DNA of 27,284 bases, taken from positions 1 through 27,284 of IMG/VR virus record IMGVR_UViG_3300033076_000665. One strand, 5' to 3'. The stretch is from a virus. Taxonomy: Duplodnaviria > Caudoviricetes. Numbering within the stretch: the stretch's first letter is position 1; each line of letters opens with the position of its first letter. Shown here one piece after another: positions 2,891 through 24,639 of the stretch. The notes beneath the pieces were generated by a model. That model made no database searches. It was not told the DNA's origin and saw only the letters and a program-made list of their open reading frames with translations. Position numbers and translations under genes: made by a program.

Positions 2891-2926
2891 ACACCCCAAG
2901 GCTCCCGGCGGCTTTGGGGTGTTTTT
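2891..2926 (+). terminator. Intrinsic terminator-like hairpin
   Basis: ACACCCCAAGGC (2891-2902) pairs with GCTTTGGGGTGT (2911-2922) with one G-U pair and an 8-nt loop, followed by a short T run. It starts 6 nt after the stop at 2885. Confidence 0.65.
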
Positions 2927-2948
2927 CCAAGCCGAGACTGACACTGCT

Positions 2949-5900
2949 ATGGCCCAATATCTTTCCCTTCCAAACGGTAACTCTATTGAAGTCCCTGAAG
3001 GGATGGATGCCCGAACGGCTTACGCCAAAGCCATGGAGCAGTTTCCTGACGCGTTTGGCCTTACGCCAGATGTAAAGCCCCCAGAATCAGGTTTCACTGC
3101 CGGCCTGAAAAGCGGTATTGAATCACTCAAAGGTGACATCGGCGCTCTTGGCGCTGGACTGGGTGTTCAAGGTGCGGCTGAGTACGCCAAGCAGCAACGC
3201 GAGAAGGCTGCCCAAATCTATGAAACCCCAAAATTCACTGAGCATCCGCTCGATTACGTCACCGGTTTGCTCGGTCAATCAGCCGCGTACATGGCGGCTC
3301 CTGCAGCGGCTGCGCTTGGCGCTGCTGCTCTTCCGCTTACTGGCGCTGCTGCTACTGCTGCTGGTATTGGCGCAGCAGGTCTGGCTTCTGCTACCCAGTT
3401 CACTGGCTCCAACCTAAGCCGACAGCTTGAAGAAGGTACTGCGCCTGAAGACCTGAAACTTGGATACGCCGTAGCTGCAGCCATCCCGCAGGCTGCCTTG
3501 GATACGGTATCTATGAAGATGCTGCCCGGTGTGAACAAGCTGCTGGGCAAATGGGGTATTGAGGCCACAGAAGAGCAAGCGCTGGCTGCTGCTCGCAAAC
3601 TGGCACAGGCTTCTACAGCCGGTGTAATCAAAGCCGGTGGTATCGAAGTCGCCAAGAACGCAGGTATTGAAGGCTTGACGGAAGCAGGCCAGCAGGTGCT
3701 TGAGCGCATGCAGGCAAATCTGGACTTGATGAGTCCGGATGCGCGCCAAGAGTACCTTGACAACTTTGCCGGTGGTGCTGCGCTGGGTGGCTTGTTTGGT
3801 GCAGGCAGCCGATTTGGTGAGCAGGCCCGCGCCAAAGCCAAAGTCGCAGCAGAAGATCGCAAGGTAGCAGATAAAGCCGCTGCTGAAGAACAGGCACGTA
3901 AAGAAGCCGGCTATCTGGAAGCAGAAGCCGCAGCGCCCACACAGGCAATGCCTTACGTTGAGCCAACCGCTGTTGCGCAGCCACCACTACCCGGGTTTGA
4001 GGCTGTTGAGCCTGCAGCTACGCAAACTGCGCCAGCACCGGCCCCCACAGAACTTCTCCAAGAGCAGCAGTATCTCCAGCGCATCATGGAGGATAACCGC
4101 ATGCAGCAAAGCGCTGCTGTGGAAAAAGGCGATTACGCCACGGCGGAAAAACTGAGCGATCAGTACAACGCCTTCGATACGCGCTTGAAAGAACTCGACA
4201 CGCAGATCAAAGATGCTGGCTACGAGGACGCCGAAGCGCAGCGCATCAAGGTGCAGAAGCAAGTGGCCGCCACGCAGGCCAAGCTGCAAAACCTGACCGG
4301 GGATGCCTACGACCCAATTGAGGGGCGCAAGCTCATCGACAAACTCAAAGAGCAGCAAGCCAAGCTGACGGAACTTGGTGGTCCGCAGCAGGAACTCAAC
4401 GCCCCGCTGATGAAGCTGACCACGCCTGAAGAAGGTCTGCGTCAAGCAAATAAAGCTGCTATGGAACAACGCCAAGCCGACTTGGCCGCATCCGCCGCCC
4501 CTGCTGAAGAAGCGCAGCCTGATCTGTTTGGCCAGCAACTGCAAGACGTGGCACAGGAGACACAAGCCGGTCGCGCCGAAGACATGACGCATCTGACCAC
4601 CTTGTTTGGTGGTGCGCTGCAAGGGCTGGAACCTGCCGTCAAACTGCCCGATACCTTTAAGGTGCTGCCGGCACAGCAAGCCAAGGCCAACAAGGCGACG
4701 TTCGACAACTTGCTGAACCAGTACCAGAAGGCCAACACTGCCCTGTCCCCCGCTGCCCGAGCACAAGCTGGCGCTATCCGCGACCAGATCAACAGTTTGC
4801 GCAGCCAAGACGACGGCTACCTCAAGCGTGCGTTTGACGCCCGTGCCTCTCAGGACGAAGCTCTGGCCAACCTGATGGGCGCTATGACTGACATGCGCTC
4901 CGGCATCTACTTTGGTGGCCGTGACGTAGCCGCTGCGTCTACCAACATGGAAGGGCTGCGCAAGCAGGCTGACGAGGCCCGGGCCAAGTACATTGAAGCT
5001 GCGCTGCAGGAAGCCGCGATTCATCGCCGTGCTGCCGGCAACCCCGCTATTACTGCCGATGAAGCCGTCAAAGCTGCGGATGCAATGGATCGTGCTATGC
5101 GCGAAGCCATCGACGAAGTTGCTACCCGTAGCGAAGCAGATCGCGGTGGCGCATACAAAGAAGAGCAGGTGGTTTTGCCGGCGCAGATGCGCGGTTCTCA
5201 AATTGTCAGCCCCGCCGTTACCGAACGGCGTGATGTGCGCCCGTTGTCTGAGCGCCCGTTTGGTGCCCCCAAGGCAGCGCAGGAAGTCATTGCTGAGCAG
5301 CTTAACGTGCTGCCTAAAATTCGTGACGATCTGATCAACAAAAAGGCCCCCGTACAAAAAGGTGAAGCCGCTCTGCTGAATAAGCAGTATGCTGCTGCTG
5401 AAGCTGCTAAGGTTGCCGAAGCCCGAGGAGAAACTGCTACTACTGTTGGTGGTGAACTGCGCCGCCGCACGGAGTTTGTCCGCAACAAGATGGAGAAGCT
5501 GCCCGAGAACATGCGCGGAGCGGCCTCCAAAGTGCTGAATGAATCTGCGGACATTATGGATTCCGGCAAAGCTACCAACGCACTACTCGATGCTGTGGAA
5601 CCCGTAGTGGACACGCTGAACCGCAATATGATGCCGCGCATGAACGACCTACGTGCAATCAGCGACGCCATCAAAGCCATGGCCCCCACCGCTGTTGAGC
5701 AGCAGGAAGCTGGCCAGAAAGACCTGTTTGGCACCACTACCGACCGCCGTCGCAAAGATCAAGAGCTTGGCGTTATCCGCCGCAACTTTGAGGCGTTCCA
5801 GAACTCGGAGCCCGTGAAGAAAGCCCGCATGGCAATTGCTCAAGCGGAAGCTGCGGCCAAGCAAGCCGAGGCTGAAGAAAAGGCCGCAGCTGCCAAGCGT

Positions 5901-8900
5901 GCTGAGCGCAAGGCAGAAGAGCGCGTGCGCTTGGAAGAAACACTGCCGGAACAGCGCAAGGCTTGGGCAGAAGCGTTTGCTTCCGCCAAAAAACAGGCGG
6001 TTATTGAGGCCAATGCGACGTTCAATCCCCAGATCGCAAACGCGCTTAAGCAACTGGACAAGATTCGAGAGCAAGTCGAGCAGACTGAGCTCATGGGTGC
6101 AGCCGATGTTACGCCGAGTAAGGAGGTCATGGCCGAAGTCAAAGCACTGCGCGACAAATACGGCGCGGTCAAAGAGCGCCTTGAGAACCTGCTGATCGAC
6201 AAAGAGTCGGCACTGCAAGACGCCAACATCCGCACGCAAGCGTTGCTCGACAGCAATGTCGAGTTCGAGAAGAACGAGCTGCAACGTCTGGAAAAGCAGT
6301 ATGACAAGCTGGCTGCCAGCACCGCTACACGCCCCGAAATTTTGGCTGCTCAGAAAGAAGCCCAAGCTCAACGCGAAGCTGTGGCTATGGCTGAGAAAAA
6401 GCGTGCCGACGAGTTGGCTGAGCGCGATCGTCTGGCCCGTGAGCATGATCAGCGCATGGCCAAGGCTTATCCCGGCGCTGTGCTGCAACGCGTTACACGT
6501 GAAGTTGAGGTTCAGTACCGCGACAAAGAAGGCAAGCTGCGCAAAGAGATGGTGCCTATGCGCTCCAACACGGGCTACATCACCGCCCCTGAGCGGCTTG
6601 CTGCCGATCTGCGCGAGAAGCAAATTCAGGAGTTGGAAACAGCGCCCAAAGCCGGTACCCGTTCAACGGAGATCACAAAGCGCGCAACAGGCCCTGTGGC
6701 ACGCGGCACTACCGGCAAGGACGTGGTGAAGATCACAGAGGCTCGTGGCGAGAAGACACGCAATGTAGCTGTTACTTCTGATGAAATCAAGGAAGCTAAC
6801 GCTATTGCGGAGCAGCTGAAGAAGACTAGCCCCAAAGAACGCGCTGCCCAAGTACAAGAAGCAGAGAAGACCGCTGCTGAGCTGATGGGCATCGACACCG
6901 ACAAACGCAACTGGCGCAAGAAATGGCTGGAAGCTGGCGGCAAGCTGGACACAGTGCTGCGCGAAATGGACAAAGGCAAGTACGACGCACCATCGTTCAC
7001 CGGCCTGAAGATGGGTACCATCAAAGCACTCAAGGCTGGAGATATTGGCACCGTCCTGAAGAACTTGGCCGATGCTGGCTCCAGCAAATTTGTGCAGAAG
7101 CTGGCCGGTGCACTAGCTCCGTTAGTTAGCGACGTCAAGGTTGTGATCTCCGAAGACCCCATCATTGTCGATGGCCGCCGCGCTTCCGCAGACTACAACG
7201 CCAAGACCCAGACCGCTCGCTTTGATGTTGCGCAGCTGTCCGAAGAAAACGTCCTGCACGAACTGATCCACGCCGCCACGCTCAACGCTTTGCGTCGGCC
7301 AATCTCGGCCTTGAACGCTGCGCAGCAGGCTGCACGCCGCGAACTGGAGGCCATGTTCAAGTACATCAAGAACAACAAGGCGCTGGCACGTGAGTACGGT
7401 CGTGAAAACGTTGAAGAATTTGCCTCAGAGCTTCTCTCCAACAAAGTGCTGCAAGACAAGCTTAAGGACGTGAAATGGTACGGCGGGGGCAACATGTTCA
7501 CCCGCTTCATCAACCGCGTTCTGGGCATGCTCGGCCTCAAAGAAGGCGTGGACTTCCGCGCTGGCGCTGTGGACAAAGTGCTCAATCTGTTTGAGAAGAC
7601 CGCGCCCATCGAGGAAGCCAATACCGTGGCGTCTATCCTTCGCGGTGTGTTTCCCGACAAAGAAACGGTCTATACCGACAAGGTGAGCACTGCTGCACAA
7701 GACGCAGCCAAGGCCATGGTAGCTAGTACCCGCAAACTGGGCGACAAAGTTGAAGCCTCGTTCTTCAACCCAACGGCTGGTCTGGCATGGCGCACGCAGC
7801 TGTTGGATCGCTTTGCCCCCGTCGAGGCGCTGCTCAAAAAGGGCGTCGAGCGTGGGTTGATTCCAGACATGCAGCTTTTCCAGACACAGTACTACTTGCG
7901 TTTTGGTGAGCAGCGTAGCCAGTATGTAGCGCAGGCTGCATCTGTCGGTGTGCCACAACGCATCAAGCAGTCCGACGGCTCCTATACTATTGAGGCCGTC
8001 AAAGGAGCAAACATTGCTGACATCGCCAAGACGCTCGGGGACGCAGGTATCGGTAGTGAGCAAGCTGCAGAAGAAATGTTCACTGGCTGGATGGCGGGGC
8101 TGCGTGCAGGCCAAGGCAAGATCGGTTGGAATAAGCTGAACTTCAAAGATGCGGCAGCCGCCAAAGCCAACTGGGAAAAGATCAACCAAGAAGTCCAGAG
8201 CAACCCGCAGCTCAAGGAAGCCTTCAGCAAAGCACGCGATCAGTACCGCGAATACAACGCTAACCTGCTGAACTTCTTGGCCGATTCTGGTGCACTATCT
8301 CGTGAGAAAGCCGCTGAACTGAAAGCGCTGGACTACGTGCCGTTCTACCGGATTGATGGCGACTCCCTGAACTTGATGATCGACAACGAACATCCAGTAC
8401 GTATTGGAAATATCGCGCAACAACCATACCTCAAAGAACTGGTTGGTGGAGAAGATTCTATCCTGCCCTTCTTCAGCAGCGCGTTGCAAAACACCAACTT
8501 GCTCATGGACATGGCGCTGCGTAATATCCAGACCAAGGACGTGGCGTACGTACTAAAGCAGCTTGACGGCGCTGAAATTCGTAACGGTGCAGGTCCTGCG
8601 GGTAACAACGTCATTCGTTTCCGTGAACATGGCGAGATGAAGCACGCGATTATCGACACTGACGCCTACGGCGTACCGGCTGAGCTGTTGGTCAAGGGTA
8701 TGGAAGGTATCAAGACCACCATCCCGGCAGTTGTGCGTTTGATGAAGTACCCGGCTAACTTGCTGCGCAAGACAGTGACAATGTTCCCGACCTATGCAAT
8801 GCGTCAGGCCGTGCGCGATCCGTTGAGCGCTTGGCTTGTTACTGGCGGTGACTTCACCCCGATTGCAAGCTCCTTCAAAGAGCTTGGCAAGATGGTAGCC

Positions 8901-10229
8901 GGAAAGAGCGAGCTGGAGGAAACTCTGCAGCATGCTGGCGCTATCAGCAGCAACGTGTTCTCTGGCGATAAGCACGACATGGAGATGATCCTGCGCAGCT
9001 TGGCCGGAGGAAAGGGTGGTTGGCAGAAACTCATTGCCAAGGCAGAAGGTCTGGCCATCCAAGGCGATTCGTCTACTCGCGCTGTGCTCTACGACATGTA
9101 TCGCAAAAAGGGTATGACGCACATGCAGGCGTTGCTTGGTTCGCTGGAGTCCATGAACTTCAACCGCCGTGGTGTGTCGCCCAGCTTGCAATTCATGTCC
9201 ATGATGGTGCCGTTCTTCAACGCACAGATTCAAGGTCTGGACGTGCTATGGCGGGCTGCTCGCGGACAGTCCCTGCTGGAAAAAGAAATGAACGTCCGTG
9301 CCACCATGCTCAAGCGCGGTGCCATGATGGCTGCCGGCACACTTGCCTACGCTGCGCTGATGCAAGACGATGACTCCTACAAGAACGCTACTCCTGAGCA
9401 ACGCGCCCTCAACTGGCTCATCCCAGTACCGGGTACGGAAGCTACGCTGCGGCTGCCGATTCCGTTTGAACTGGGTTACGCGTTCAAGGCCATCCCCGAG
9501 ATGATCTACAACGTTGCGCTTGGTGACCAGAAAGCTAGCGATGCCGCAAAAGCACTGGGGGCTCTGGCATATCAGTCGGTGCCGATCGGTATGCCGCAGG
9601 CCATCAAGCCGATTATCGAGGTTGCGTCCAACTACTCGTTCTTCACCGGAGACCAGATTGAGACGGCCCGTATGCAGCGTTTGGAAAAGAGCGAGCGCTA
9701 CACAGCGAATACCTCCGAAGTGGCCAAGATGCTGAGCGCTGCCGTCGGCCACGCAGTGTCTCCAACACAGGTGGAGTATCTTATCCGTGGCTACACCGGT
9801 ACGATGGGCGTCGCAATGACACAGCTGCCAGACATTGCACTGCGCCCACTGAGCGGCGAAGCGGAGCGTCCTACAAAACTCATCAGTGAGTACCCGGTGG
9901 TTGGTACCTTGTTCCAACCACGCGACGGCAGCGGCGTTGTCAACGCGGCATTCGACCGAATCAAGGAGTTCCAGCAAGCGCATACCACGCTGCAGGCCAT
10001 GATCCAAGAAGGCCGCACAGCAGACGCACAAGCCTTCGCCCAGAAGTACGCTACGGATATTGCGGCCAATTCAATCGGGGGGCAGTTCCGTCAGCAGATG
10101 GGGGAATTGGCCAAGCTGCGCCGCGCTGTTACCGCATCGCAGACGCTCACGCCAGACCAGAAGCGCCAGCGTATTGATGAGATCAAGAAGATGGAGCTTC
10201 AGCTGGCCCGTCAGATTCGAGCGATTTAA
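2949..10229 (+). CDS. Large polyvalent internal virion protein (~2426 aa) with zincin metallopeptidase (MPTase-like) and C-terminal LPD38-like domain
   Basis: ATG at 2949 is preferred over 2919, which lies inside the hairpin. N-terminal Ala/Gly hydrophobic stretch and long coiled coils. HELIH at 7257-7271 with downstream EEFASE. C-terminal NWLIPVPG..LRLPIPFELGYAFKAIPE matches the LPD38 pattern as I recall it. Confidence 0.8.
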   Translation: MAQYLSLPNGNSIEVPEGMDARTAYAKAMEQFPDAFGLTPDVKPPESGFTAGLKSGIESLKGDIGALGAGLGVQGAAEYAKQQREKAAQIYETPKFTEHPLDYVTGLLGQSAAYMAAPAAAALGAAALPLTGAAATAAGIGAAGLASATQFTGSNLSRQLEEGTAPEDLKLGYAVAAAIPQAALDTVSMKMLPGVNKLLGKWGIEATEEQALAAARKLAQASTAGVIKAGGIEVAKNAGIEGLTEAGQQVLERMQANLDLMSPDARQEYLDNFAGGAALGGLFGAGSRFGEQARAKAKVAAEDRKVADKAAAEEQARKEAGYLEAEAAAPTQAMPYVEPTAVAQPPLPGFEAVEPAATQTAPAPAPTELLQEQQYLQRIMEDNRMQQSAAVEKGDYATAEKLSDQYNAFDTRLKELDTQIKDAGYEDAEAQRIKVQKQVAATQAKLQNLTGDAYDPIEGRKLIDKLKEQQAKLTELGGPQQELNAPLMKLTTPEEGLRQANKAAMEQRQADLAASAAPAEEAQPDLFGQQLQDVAQETQAGRAEDMTHLTTLFGGALQGLEPAVKLPDTFKVLPAQQAKANKATFDNLLNQYQKANTALSPAARAQAGAIRDQINSLRSQDDGYLKRAFDARASQDEALANLMGAMTDMRSGIYFGGRDVAAASTNMEGLRKQADEARAKYIEAALQEAAIHRRAAGNPAITADEAVKAADAMDRAMREAIDEVATRSEADRGGAYKEEQVVLPAQMRGSQIVSPAVTERRDVRPLSERPFGAPKAAQEVIAEQLNVLPKIRDDLINKKAPVQKGEAALLNKQYAAAEAAKVAEARGETATTVGGELRRRTEFVRNKMEKLPENMRGAASKVLNESADIMDSGKATNALLDAVEPVVDTLNRNMMPRMNDLRAISDAIKAMAPTAVEQQEAGQKDLFGTTTDRRRKDQELGVIRRNFEAFQNSEPVKKARMAIAQAEAAAKQAEAEEKAAAAKRAERKAEERVRLEETLPEQRKAWAEAFASAKKQAVIEANATFNPQIANALKQLDKIREQVEQTELMGAADVTPSKEVMAEVKALRDKYGAVKERLENLLIDKESALQDANIRTQALLDSNVEFEKNELQRLEKQYDKLAASTATRPEILAAQKEAQAQREAVAMAEKKRADELAERDRLAREHDQRMAKAYPGAVLQRVTREVEVQYRDKEGKLRKEMVPMRSNTGYITAPERLAADLREKQIQELETAPKAGTRSTEITKRATGPVARGTTGKDVVKITEARGEKTRNVAVTSDEIKEANAIAEQLKKTSPKERAAQVQEAEKTAAELMGIDTDKRNWRKKWLEAGGKLDTVLREMDKGKYDAPSFTGLKMGTIKALKAGDIGTVLKNLADAGSSKFVQKLAGALAPLVSDVKVVISEDPIIVDGRRASADYNAKTQTARFDVAQLSEENVLHELIHAATLNALRRPISALNAAQQAARRELEAMFKYIKNNKALAREYGRENVEEFASELLSNKVLQDKLKDVKWYGGGNMFTRFINRVLGMLGLKEGVDFRAGAVDKVLNLFEKTAPIEEANTVASILRGVFPDKETVYTDKVSTAAQDAAKAMVASTRKLGDKVEASFFNPTAGLAWRTQLLDRFAPVEALLKKGVERGLIPDMQLFQTQYYLRFGEQRSQYVAQAASVGVPQRIKQSDGSYTIEAVKGANIADIAKTLGDAGIGSEQAAEEMFTGWMAGLRAGQGKIGWNKLNFKDAAAAKANWEKINQEVQSNPQLKEAFSKARDQYREYNANLLNFLADSGALSREKAAELKALDYVPFYRIDGDSLNLMIDNEHPVRIGNIAQQPYLKELVGGEDSILPFFSSALQNTNLLMDMALRNIQTKDVAYVLKQLDGAEIRNGAGPAGNNVIRFREHGEMKHAIIDTDAYGVPAELLVKGMEGIKTTIPAVVRLMKYPANLLRKTVTMFPTYAMRQAVRDPLSAWLVTGGDFTPIASSFKELGKMVAGKSELEETLQHAGAISSNVFSGDKHDMEMILRSLAGGKGGWQKLIAKAEGLAIQGDSSTRAVLYDMYRKKGMTHMQALLGSLESMNFNRRGVSPSLQFMSMMVPFFNAQIQGLDVLWRAARGQSLLEKEMNVRATMLKRGAMMAAGTLAYAALMQDDDSYKNATPEQRALNWLIPVPGTEATLRLPIPFELGYAFKAIPEMIYNVALGDQKASDAAKALGALAYQSVPIGMPQAIKPIIEVASNYSFFTGDQIETARMQRLEKSERYTANTSEVAKMLSAAVGHAVSPTQVEYLIRGYTGTMGVAMTQLPDIALRPLSGEAERPTKLISEYPVVGTLFQPRDGSGVVNAAFDRIKEFQQAHTTLQAMIQEGRTADAQAFAQKYATDIAANSIGGQFRQQMGELAKLRRAVTASQTLTPDQKRQRIDEIKKMELQLARQIRAI

Positions 10230-18834: not shown

Positions 18835-19058
18835 AACTTGTTTCCTAGTTCTTTGAGGCGGTTGTACATGAGCATGTATTCGAGGGCGTCTTGCAGTGTT
18901 TGGTGGCAGGAGTACCCGATGTAGCTTGCGCTGTTTGGGCGCACCATCCATTGGTCGCCGTCAGTATCCAGTCTGACGTCCCAGTCTGCGTACTCGAACA
19001 GGATTTTGATGGCATCATCGTCAAGCGCCTCAGTCGAATTTTGCGGAGTGGATGGCAT
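18831..19058 (-). CDS. Hypothetical protein (75 aa, MPSTPQNSTEALDDD...)
   Basis: ATG at 19058 with GAGG RBS. The stop overlaps the next gene's ATG. Confidence 0.6.
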   Translation of the reverse strand: MPSTPQNSTEALDDDAIKILFEYADWDVRLDTDGDQWMVRPNSASYIGYSCHQTLQDALEYMLMYNRLKELGNKL

Positions 19059-21666: not shown

Positions 21667-21965
21667 TGTATGTCCTCCATAGCTTGTAGTGTGTGCGCCA
21701 ACAGGGGCAGTGTTGTTTCGTTGATCACAAGGGCGACGCCCTTGCTTGCACGTATGCGCTCGATGTTGGCGTCCTGCAGTGCAGTAGTCTTGCCCTTGCC
21801 CGCCTTTGCCTCGATGGCAAGAAAGAACCCATTGTGGCAACACAAGAAGTCAGGCACGCCATGATTACCCATACCATTACTTACCGGCATAACAAAGTAA
21901 ACGCCTGCGTCTTTCAGCATTTTCTTAATCTGGGACTTAACGCGCCCCTCGGGGGTTGTAGCCAT
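21654..21965 (-). CDS. VRR-NUC domain nuclease (probable Holliday junction resolvase)
   Basis: TPEGRVK...GVPDFLCC..G.FLAIEAKAGKGKTTALQ. AAGGA RBS before the ATG at 21965. Confidence 0.88.
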   Translation of the reverse strand: MATTPEGRVKSQIKKMLKDAGVYFVMPVSNGMGNHGVPDFLCCHNGFFLAIEAKAGKGKTTALQDANIERIRASKGVALVINETTLPLLAHTLQAMEDIQWMK

Positions 21966-22599
21966 CGAGTGTTCCTTTCTTTCTAAGCTGTGCGTACACG
22001 GCACCGTTTGTTACACCAAGCTTGCGTGCGGCTGCTGTTGCCGACATTCGCACCCCATCCAGTACTACCCACACCGTAGAGCGCCTGTTTGTTGCCTGCA
22101 CAACAGGTGTAGCCCAGCGTACGTTACCGGGTTCGTACCCTTTTGTTGTATCAATACGATCTAGCGTCGTGTTAGGCGGTCTGTCTCCTACATCCGAGCA
22201 AAACCGTTTGAATGACTTTGCCCACGGGGCATAGAACGTAATACCAACAGCGCCGTAGCGGTAGAAATCCTTATCGGACGGTTCCAAGCAGCGCCGACGC
22301 GCAGATATGTAGCTGTTATATTCCCGCTGGTGCGCTTGTCGCCAAGGGTCTGTCGATTGTTTGTTTCGCTCGATGAGCTGCTTTTTGTGTAAACATCCGC
22401 AGGAGCGGGCAGCGCCGGAGGTGACGTCGTTTGTCCGCACAACAACTCGCTGCCCGCAATCGCATACCGCCCTCCATACCGCTTGGTTTTTAGGGGTGCG
22501 CCCTAAGTACTCTTCTATCTGTAGCAGATCAAACCGTGTACCGATAAGCTCTGCGGAACGGCCTGTTTTCTTTACTTTCGCCTCGGGGGTCATTGCCAT
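21937..22599 (-). mobile_element. Free-standing HNH-family homing endonuclease gene (CDCG/SCGC zinc module, LDRID..GY.PGNVRWAT, C-terminal HTH)
   Basis: WRAVCDCG...SCGC, TLDRIDTTKGYEPGNVRWATPVVQATNRR and C-terminal TAAARKLGVTNGAVYAQL. The ATG at 22599 overlaps the upstream TAA. Mobility is inferred from the family. Confidence 0.8.
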
Positions 22600-23012
22600 T
22601 AGAAATCCTTGTCCTTGATTGCAAACGGTCGCTGCGCCTGCAGGGCGGCAGCATCTTTGTACATCGCGGCTGCAACTTTTTCGTCGCCAATGCTTACGCG
22701 ACTCGCGGGGGTGTTGTCGCAACCAAAGAACGCATCCAAGTCCGCGCCCTTGAGGTGCTTGAAATCGCCTTCGTATTCAATCACGACGCCCACTATGCGG
22801 AAGAACTTATAGATCGTGTGGTACACGCGCAGCGAGGCCGTTGTTTCTGTTGCGGTGCGTACACGTATTGCGAGCGCTTCGCGTGCTGCTTCTGCTGTTG
22901 CAGCGTAGCTGCGCACAATCGCCAACTCTTTTTCCAGCGCGTCCATACGCTCTGCCTGCGCCGCGTGGGCTAGCCGCTGCAGCGGCGGCTTTTTCCACTG
23001 TGCTTTCTTCAT
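22599..23012 (-). CDS. Hypothetical protein (137 aa, N-terminal coiled coil)
   Basis: GGAGAATCAACC-ATG RBS. TAATG coupling to the next gene. Confidence 0.65.
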   Translation of the reverse strand: MKKAQWKKPPLQRLAHAAQAERMDALEKELAIVRSYAATAEAAREALAIRVRTATETTASLRVYHTIYKFFRIVGVVIEYEGDFKHLKGADLDAFFGCDNTPASRVSIGDEKVAAAMYKDAAALQAQRPFAIKDKDF

Positions 23013-23044
23013 GGTTGATTCTCCGTAATAGGTTTGTAGGAAGT

Positions 23045-23170
23045 AGGGGGACAGCAGATTCCGCGCCCCCTGTCGCGGTGAGGAGTAATGGGTAAGATAG
23101 GCAACCTCGGGCTGAGCACCCTCTTACCCCGCGAAGCGTAGTCACATCTGCAAGGATCGTACGCCGCGCC
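23045..23170 (-). ncRNA. Candidate structured RNA (three stem domains plus loop-loop pseudoknot), family not recognised
   Basis: Inverted repeats 23045-50/23066-71, 23073-78/23129-34, 23091-97/23122-28 and 23136-40/23160-64. Complementary loop hexamers at 23054-59 and 23146-51. It occupies the largest intergenic gap. Strand is inferred from the flanking genes. Confidence 0.5.
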
Positions 23171-23180
23171 AACCATGGAC

Positions 23181-23462
23181 TCAGCCCTTGGTGTTCTGTC
23201 GCTGGTGCGCTTGTTGGTTGCGAACTTCTGCCAGCTTCAACGCGTAGTGCCGCGCCTTGTTGGCGTCGTCACTGTCTTTCTTGCCTTGGCGCATGCCGTA
23301 TTTGATCACATTGCCTTTGAGGTAGCCGACCCATTCTTCGGGCGTCAGTACCGCCTCCATCACAGCCCACGGCTGGATGCCCATGTCTTTGTAGTGTTGG
23401 CCGCCCACTTGCAGATCGTCTGCAGCCATGCCGTTGATTCCGGGTTTGATCGTGTTTGTCAT
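23181..23462 (-). CDS. DUF3310 protein (related to T7 gp1.7 nucleotide kinase)
   Basis: QVGGQHYK..IQPW...GYLKGNVIKY..R.GKK...D..KA.HY signature. Confidence 0.85.
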   Translation of the reverse strand: MTNTIKPGINGMAADDLQVGGQHYKDMGIQPWAVMEAVLTPEEWVGYLKGNVIKYGMRQGKKDSDDANKARHYALKLAEVRNQQAHQRQNTKG

Positions 23463-24443: not shown

Positions 24444-24639
24444 TTGTGTTCTCCTTACTGCCGAAAATTTTGTTCCAGTTCGCAGCGAACGCTGCGTCAT
24501 CGCGCTGTTTTCTTGGTGCGCTGCCCTTGCCGCCATCACTCATGGTTCTTCTCCTTGACTCAGTGGTCGCCTTAAGTGCCCATATAACAAACATCCCGGC
24601 GATAAACGCCAGCAATAAATCCCACTCTGCTTCACTCAT
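24316..24639 (-). CDS. Small membrane peptide in frame with an MSDGGKGS...NWNKIFG peptide (second start at 24543)
   Basis: Both ATGs have RBS (GGGAGAAGAAC, AAGGAGAAGAAC). Hydrophobic segment LLLAFIAGMFVIWAL. The 3' part overlaps the next gene by 128 nt, so the functional extent is uncertain. Confidence 0.5.
   Translation of the reverse strand: MSEAEWDLLLAFIAGMFVIWALKATTESRRRTMSDGGKGSAPRKQRDDAAFAANWNKIFGSKENTNDQDQHGRDGAQEARSQAGKEDGGVHLRATDTPVDGRDTHLS

Follow-up and report, generated by a model that had tools for sequence, protein, structure and literature searches.

A conserved non-coding RNA with three pseudoknots at an early-gene junction of uncultured tailed phages

The DNA analyzed here, referred to as the window, is a 27-kb tailed-phage fragment (27,284 nt; IMG/VR record IMGVR_UViG_3300033076_000665). 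A run of minus-strand genes extends from 27.3 to 10.2 kb and carries, in this order, small early genes and the genes for a VRR-NUC/Hjc-like nuclease, DNA polymerase A, an exonuclease, an SNF2 helicase and a DUF927 primase/helicase. The RNA element that we describe sits on the same strand in a 168-nt gap between the gene for a 93-aa DUF3310 protein (23462-23181; Pfam PF11753, E 7.7e-15), whose UGA stop occupies 23183-23181, and the gene for a 137-aa protein without known family (23012-22599). This gap, which an initial annotation of the sequence had pointed out as being ~170 nt long, was the largest of the 28 junctions in the 17-kb run. The next largest gaps, also on the minus strand, measured 96 nt (24540-24635) and 78 nt (18952-19029). 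The 137-aa gene is followed by an HNH endonuclease gene (22602-21937), the nuclease gene (21962-21654) and then DNA polymerase A, while the primase gene lies 10 kb away from the element. On the plus strand, positions 2919-10229 encode a 2436-aa protein with an LPD38 domain that is preceded by glutamine/alanine-rich proteins; these are probably virion core or ejection proteins. The closest cultured relatives by protein were Pseudomonas phage Rollin and Rhizobium phage RHph_TM3_14A (27-43% identity), and no element was found around their nuclease gene. DNA queries against cultured phages returned chance matches or none, and likewise against plasmids.

The initial annotation had proposed a novel structured RNA with a kissing-loop pseudoknot at 23045..23170. 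All of the strings on which it relied were found in place, namely GCGUA (23164-23160) and UACGC (23140-23136), GCAGAU (23151-23146) and AUCUGC (23059-23054), AGGGGG (23071-23066) and CCCCCU (23050-23045), as well as GGUAAGA/UCUUACC, CUC/GAG and two occurrences of GGCGCGG. The element proved to be larger than first noted, spanning 23187-23042 of the minus strand (about 145 nt). The expectation that it would fold better than shuffled sequence was not borne out, with z-scores of -0.38 and -0.32 and 65 of 200 shuffles equally good. Since its thermodynamic fold is no better than that of shuffles, the case for the element rests on comparison.

A protein-anchored fetch yielded 80 DUF3310 loci and one locus of the 137-aa protein, and 16 of these 81 loci resembled the gap. 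Pattern scans of IMG/VR and metagenomes gave at least 209 locus hits with at least 95 distinct cores, which fell into at least 63 clusters at 85% identity; an automatic P1 rule had dropped four clusters before this count. After editing by eye, in which L314 and L636 were removed as false positives, L633, L723 and L747 were restored and L616 was left out, the final set contained at least 64 clusters including the window, the homologs being from uncultured phages. Looser patterns run on viral and metagenome sequences produced mostly noise and three new members. A pattern scan of GTDB found the element's architecture in 0 of 120 matches, which says little as 4 of 64 parts were scanned. Because the first search pattern fixed the 3' core but not its partner strands, the invariance of the 3' core is partly imposed.

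We aligned 56 of the first 71 cores by MAFFT and scanned the alignment for mutual information without guidance from a structure. The top four column pairs were two from the kissing helix, one from a second pseudoknot helix (PK2) and one from hairpin P1. None of 500 shuffles reached the observed score, and slid partners fell to 39-55%. Hairpin P1 (23131..23169, minus strand) pairs 23169-23160 with 23140-23131 and contains an internal loop, an apical pair (C23155-G23145) and a 9-nt loop, L1. P1 was 68.7% paired and all 10 of its pairs changed on both sides, with the apical pair being CG in 52 and GC in 3 of the 56 sequences. Isolated mismatches in P1 were G.U in 31 cases versus A.C in one, which fixes the minus (mRNA) strand as the strand of the structure; the element was also always on the sense strand among the homologs. 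The 5' strand of the kissing helix, (U)GCAGAU (23146..23152, minus strand), lies in L1. The helix has 7 bp in the family and 6 bp in the window, where a U.U mismatch is present at 23152/23053, and 99.2% of its cells were paired in the 56 sequences. Five of the seven pairs were invariant and the two variable pairs changed jointly on both sides; the outer pair was UA23/AU18/GC10/CG1/GU1/other 3 and the third pair was UA43/CG13.

The 3' half of the core is formed by PK2 and P3. Stem P3 (23045..23071, minus strand) pairs 23071-23066 with 23050-23045, was 92.6% paired and measured 6-7 bp in 59 of 64 clusters. Its loop holds CGCGG (23065-23061), an unpaired A (23060) and the 3' kissing strand AUCUGC (23059-23054). 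The CGCGG string pairs with CCGCG upstream of P3 (23074..23078) to form PK2, which was 97.5% paired and whose second pair appeared in all four Watson-Crick forms (CG41/AU7/UA5/GC2/other 1). PK2 and P3 thus make up an H-type pseudoknot, and its long loop makes the kissing contact with the loop of P1. We then counted changes of the 5' side, the 3' side and the pair state on a rough tree from which the tested columns had been masked. The counts were 9/9/9 for kissing pair 3, 15/18/18 for the outer kissing pair, and 10/10/10 and 13/14/14 for PK2. These near-equal numbers indicate that the pair changes were joint and repeated.

The kissing pairing of the initial annotation therefore stood, with covariation on the tree, while the fold that it had drawn for the middle of the element did not. 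The proposed UCGCGG/CCGCGA arm is contradicted by the comparison, as its UCGC belongs to the 3' strand of P1 and its CCGCG has its partner, CGCGG, in the loop of stem 3. The bases of the inner CUC/GAG hairpin overlap the partner strand of helix P0 (below), and the first GGCGCGG, suggested as an alternative pairing partner, is missing from homologs such as L081. PK2, P0 and the capture of the upstream stop codon go beyond that annotation. We also considered whether the region is coding, since an ORF (23172..22807) covers it. This ORF had no conserved reading frame, the best frame being open in 17 of 64 clusters. The distance from the P1 loop to stem 3 was evenly spread modulo 3 (22/21/21 in the 64 clusters), with single-base gaps relative to L081, indicating that the element is non-coding. 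Several unpaired bases were conserved, namely a loop C (59/64), a loop U (58/64), a purine before PK2 (64/64) and the single unpaired A that precedes the kissing strand. From the arrangement of the helices we infer that PK2, the kissing helix and the tip of P1 would meet in one junction and gather these bases into a pocket. Taken together, a conserved non-coding triple-pseudoknot RNA is real and well supported at this locus, its helices, strand, non-coding state, independence of neighbors and the location of the stop codon within P0 (below) being shown by comparison.

Between P1 and PK2 lie hairpin P2 and a joiner. P2 (23090..23129, minus strand) pairs 23129-23122 with 23097-23090, is extended above these strands and had a z-score of -2.35 on its own; its sequence is variable, and it is short or absent in some members. 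The third pseudoknot helix, P0, is formed between the P2 loop and sequence 5' of P1 at the upstream gene's end. In the window its 5' strand, GGGCUGAGU (23179..23187, minus strand), comprises the last codons and the stop of the DUF3310 gene. This strand forms 9 bp with GCUCAGCCC (23109..23117, minus strand) in the P2 loop, so that a UCA faces the UGA stop. The linker between P0 and P1 (23170..23178, minus strand) contains CAU in 29 of 63 clusters. Cognate P0 duplexes averaged -16.3 kcal/mol (n=61), while exchanged partners reached -9.8 and a control from the same locus -8.5 kcal/mol. With narrow windows, the cognate partner was the best in 22 of 61 and among the top three in 33 of 61, whereas an earlier test with wide windows was weaker, placing the cognate first in 9 of 59. 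P0 was present in 50 of 63 clusters (L089 left out) with a length of 6-17 bp and no fixed sequence. Four clusters (L157, L369, L380 and L127) kept the core without P2 and P0, and some members have a local hairpin instead of P0. The survival of the core without these helices suggests that the working unit is the compact double-pseudoknot core.

The position of the upstream stop codon was examined in the 49 clusters that had both P0 and an upstream ORF, the ORFs being chosen by length so that a few are probably wrong. The stop overlapped P0 in 28 clusters and lay within 3 nt before it in 7, and was thus in or beside P0 in 35 of 49; it was more than 3 nt upstream in 10 and 3' of P0 in 4. All three stop triplets were found opposite their complements (UGA:UCA 7, UAG:CUA 7, UAA:UUA 2), along with 6 wobble forms, and the median distance from stop to P1 was 14 nt. 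Two points count against sensing: compaction of the genome could by itself bring stops as close to P1 as the ribosome footprint permits, and the stop lies elsewhere than P0 in about a quarter of members. On the other hand, compensation maintains P0 even though ribosomes must open it, and this counts for a sensing role. In L028 (about 2740-2765) and L724 (before P1) the upstream gene has gained an earlier stop, yet the locus still carries an in-frame stop next to or within P0. In L120 and L171 the longest upstream frame crosses P1 and ends in the kissing loop; here the ORF was probably mis-called.

A rival explanation is a translation switch, in which the terminating ribosome would melt P0 and thereby govern how the following gene is initiated. 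The two genes would in this way stay coupled over the 168-nt gap, for instance by pairing of the joiner with the Shine-Dalgarno sequence. The joiner J (23079..23089, minus strand) is pyrimidine-rich (CUCC-like) and has a purine end in every cluster (A51/G13 of 64). Downstream of P3 follow a conserved AC(C/U) tail (23042..23044, minus strand), which read ACC in 31 of 64 clusters compared to 16 of 768 background positions and AC in 43 of 64, and then a G-poor spacer (23013..23041, minus strand; composition A366 C298 U235 G125) with the Shine-Dalgarno GGAG at 23024-23021. The CUCC of the window's J is complementary to this GGAG, and the placement of the stop in or beside P0 fits such a switch. 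The spacing of genes fits as well, as the element was found right behind DUF3310 in 19 of 81 protein-anchored loci, while in 54 of the 62 DUF3310 loci without an element behind them the next gene begins no later than 3 nt past the stop and in most cases overlaps it. According to PMC10666635, gaps of more than ~20-40 nt prevent reinitiation unless long-range structure comes into play. However, covariation between J and the Shine-Dalgarno sequence did not reach significance (cognate -4.85 versus permuted -4.54, p=0.065, with some starts mis-called), and Shine-Dalgarno strength did not follow J complementarity (rho 0.06). Core and J also persist before genes that lack a Shine-Dalgarno sequence, are apparently leaderless or are separately promoted, and the switch leaves the invariant core unexplained. 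We therefore regard it as unlikely.

Pseudoknot-based translational coupling is known from IncI repY/repZ. It has also been described for the IF3-L35-L20 operon, as cited in PMC10666635. The element resembles both in having a long-range pairing near the upstream stop that a translating ribosome would open, but in both known systems the pairing involves the downstream initiation region, whereas the element's Shine-Dalgarno sequence is in no covarying helix. Dicistrovirus IGR IRESs are likewise intergenic and of similar size, with three pseudoknots and a loop that pairs with a codon-like strand. They differ in that no sequence or Rfam match links them to the element, which pairs with an upstream stop codon located 5' of the loop. 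Moreover, dicistrovirus IRES activity in E. coli was independent of the fold (PMC9458429). The resemblance is thus one of architecture only.

We compared the element to known RNA classes. Rfam 15 gave no match for the window other than RefA5 at E=2, which lay elsewhere, and 14 homolog loci returned five sub-threshold chance hits only, so that the novelty suggested in the initial annotation was not removed by this check. Across the 64 clusters no catalytic motif of a known ribozyme class was found. A hammerhead ribozyme, with its CUGAnGA and GAAA core, was rejected, as CUGAnGA occurred in 3 of 64 clusters in sense and 3 of 64 in antisense orientation. HDV-like and theta ribozymes have a P1-P2-P3-P1.1-P4 order and an invariant C in J4/2. 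The strand order of the element is different, and a C is present at the equivalent place in 9 of 64 clusters, where the base covaries with its partner in PK2. HDV-like/theta, twister and glmS ribozymes do share with the element a compact two-pseudoknot core, conserved unpaired bases, optional peripheral helices and an intergenic position in phage, but their strand order is another and none of their sequence motifs is found in the element, a candidate ribozyme. ARAGORN reported no tRNA or tmRNA (0), the T-loop motif was seen in 4 of 64 clusters and ACCA in 7 of 64. As in tRNA-like ends of the TYMV type, P3 (6-7 bp) could be stacked on PK2 (5 bp) to give a helix of ~12 bp with AC(C/U) behind it; unlike those ends, the element is internal to an mRNA and has these motifs at the low counts just given, and a tRNA-like acceptor was rejected. 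Group I and II introns were rejected, as P7-like strings occurred in 5 of 64 clusters on each strand, no Rfam intron matched and the element is intergenic and ~145 nt long; a loose intron domain-5 string matched 25 of 64 clusters. A mimic of the Cas12a repeat was rejected as well: that repeat is a continuous hairpin, which was present in 0 of 64 clusters, where the halves stand in reversed order and the helix varies. The UG27 RT-associated ncRNAs form arrays beside a reverse transcriptase, according to the preprint 10.64898/2026.09.22.753630. The element is single copy and no reverse transcriptase was found among the 20 window proteins and 33 neighbors scanned. A literature search found no description of the motif strings or of this context; alignment files of PMC10690425 and the supplement of PMC5737381 were outside its scope. 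The motif was absent from the searched supplementary files of PMC10690425, which did not include the alignment archives, and the 8,495 candidates that this study derived automatically from IMG/VR may include it, whole or in part, without a name. The element thus appears to be an RNA fold class that is undescribed, whose function may fall in a known category.

The distribution of the element was examined on a tree of 48 nuclease sequences. Its presence required 2 gains or losses compared to 12.3 for shuffled labels, indicating that it is inherited with the nuclease lineage, and a hopping mobile element was rejected on this basis. One copy each was found in the window and in five other records, and circularly permuted forms were seen in 0 of 120 candidates from the 16 of 64 parts of the collection that were scanned. 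Two complete records, G001 and G004, whose DUF3310 proteins are 83-90% identical, are without the element, as are 34 of 48 DUF3310-nuclease intervals. This bears on the suggestion of the initial annotation that a structured single-stranded DNA serves as a replication origin for the primase, and likewise on an RNA primer site in that role. The proximity of replication genes would suit an origin, and the enrichment of G.U (G.T in DNA) pairs fixes the strand, not the polymer. However, phages lacking the element, its distance of 10 kb from the primase gene and its respect for the upstream stop codon all speak against it, as do the kissing and H-type pseudoknots, which are RNA geometries. We consider an origin highly improbable.

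The neighbors of the element vary. Upstream we found DUF3310, ParB-like, AAA, vWA-like and dGTP-diphosphohydrolase genes, and downstream the nuclease (35/64, within 210 nt), polymerase, helicase or unknown genes, with no gene common to members as a partner; the upstream proteins are of many kinds that are unrelated to each other. A sigma70-like promoter stands between the element and the nuclease gene in L692 (11/12), L761 (10/12) and L127. In the first two it is near-consensus and located 7-8 nt before the nuclease start codon, which suggests that their nuclease mRNAs are leaderless. L127 (= L904, about 1600-1700) has, within 40 nt of the element, two hairpins, the second of which is terminator-like, and then the promoter. 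Promoter-like matches were few, at 4 of 64 versus 1 of 61 for the control at the chosen score, with two of the four doubtful and L127 coming from a separate pattern; a terminator within 100 nt of the element was seen in 1 of 64 clusters. The core is intact despite intervening promoters and terminators, which argues that the element does not depend on the next gene or serve its translation. In the window itself, the scan found no promoter near the element and, between 10.0 and 27.3 kb of the minus strand, no intrinsic terminator.

Two further explanations were weighed. In the first, the element would act like put of phage HK022, binding host RNA polymerase as nascent RNA and conferring resistance to termination ahead of the replication genes. 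The single copy in a 17-kb co-directional early run, in front of nuclease, polymerase, helicase and primase genes, is consistent with such a role, as are its descent with the nuclease lineage and the terminators that follow it in L127. As presented in PMC9378689, a paper that nowhere uses the word 'pseudoknot', put acts on RNA polymerase without proteins. Like the element, put is a protein-free structured RNA that precedes the replication genes in an early phage operon, but put is about 70 nt long with two stem-loops (PMC9378689), compared to ~145 nt, three pseudoknots and a stop overlap in the element. Furthermore, no need for overcoming a terminator is evident in the window, and a promoter-like site lies behind the element in three lineages. 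A put-like function is therefore quite unlikely. In the second, host nucleases would cut a stable RNA of ~145 nt from the early transcript, and this RNA would target a conserved host protein in trans, either as its decoy or as its inhibitor. Both ends of such an RNA would be closed by pseudoknots (P0 at the 5' and P3 at the 3' end), the five never-varying kissing pairs are as expected of a recognized surface, and the terminators within 40 nt in L127 and the independence of neighbors agree with a released RNA. The window copy, though, has neither a promoter of its own nearby nor a terminator, and a shared partner gene is missing, making this explanation rather unlikely as well.

To our knowledge, natural RNAs with three pseudoknots in less than 150 nt are rare, and the known ones (ribozymes, IRES, tmRNA) do something specific. 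We tentatively propose, as a possibility to be held with reserve, that the element is a self-cleaving mRNA-processing RNA of an undescribed class gated by the ribosome that ends the upstream gene. A compact conserved multi-pseudoknot core is a feature shared with self-cleaving ribozymes. According to PMC10085705, ribozyme candidates are picked for pseudoknots, for conserved positions and for a length of 50-80 nt, and the compact core with conserved unpaired bases fits that profile. For self-cleaving RNAs near phage genes, processing of polycistronic mRNA has been proposed (PMC6765202). In such a mechanism the junction pocket would be an active site or a binding pocket. Cleavage within or next to J would divide the long early transcript where the small early genes give way to those for DNA replication. 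Each product would retain a protective structure at its new end: P0, P1 and P2 would shield the 3' end of the upstream piece, and the PK2/P3 knot would shield the 5' end of the downstream piece, ahead of its ribosome-binding site. Since P0 would be opened by ribosomes finishing the upstream gene, folding or cutting would depend on upstream translation. Self-cleavage was ranked first because no expression platform is supported and the choice of neighbors is free. Against it stand the single copy, the vertical descent, the absence of permutations among the candidates scanned and of a known catalytic motif; known bacterial ribozymes are often scattered and permuted. Most ribozyme-like motifs that have been tested are not known to cleave.

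The same pocket could instead belong to a riboswitch aptamer with a nucleotide or a defence signal as its ligand, through which the replication genes would be regulated, in line with the riboswitch-like leader of the initial annotation. The pocket-like junction is conserved and DNA-metabolism genes are downstream, but no expression platform is supported, the element is kept when decoupled from the next gene and no Rfam riboswitch matched; we find this very unlikely. A bolder form of the self-cleavage proposal, which we hold to be doubtful, is a new ribozyme class in which an anticodon-like loop would read the upstream stop, so that termination switches catalysis and times the split of early and replication mRNAs. 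The strong covariation, the short minimal form (L157) and the dozens of natural variants make tests feasible at once. A new self-cleaving class would, if true, be notable in itself. Likewise, a helix that covers the stop and co-evolves with all three stop triplets would, if true, be a new means of reporting translation to an RNA structure and would bear on gene coupling across long gaps.

Some minor observations concern the genes directly behind the element. The 137-aa protein had no Pfam or PHROG match and belongs to a small family with a KAQWKK-like start. A member of this family immediately follows the RNA in 5 of 64 clusters (including L081, L082, L145 and L628). In L753 an HNH-like ORF is apparently right behind the RNA. 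In three sequencing runs, contigs of related phages (other genomes, with low likeness to window 21860-23232) join DUF3310 almost directly to the nuclease, and these joins lack the RNA as well as the 137-aa and HNH genes. The start of the window's HNH protein (MAMTPEAKVKK) is similar to that of the nuclease (MATTPEGRVKS), whose start the HNH gene overlaps, as if the HNH gene had been inserted at the nuclease start and had duplicated its first codons.
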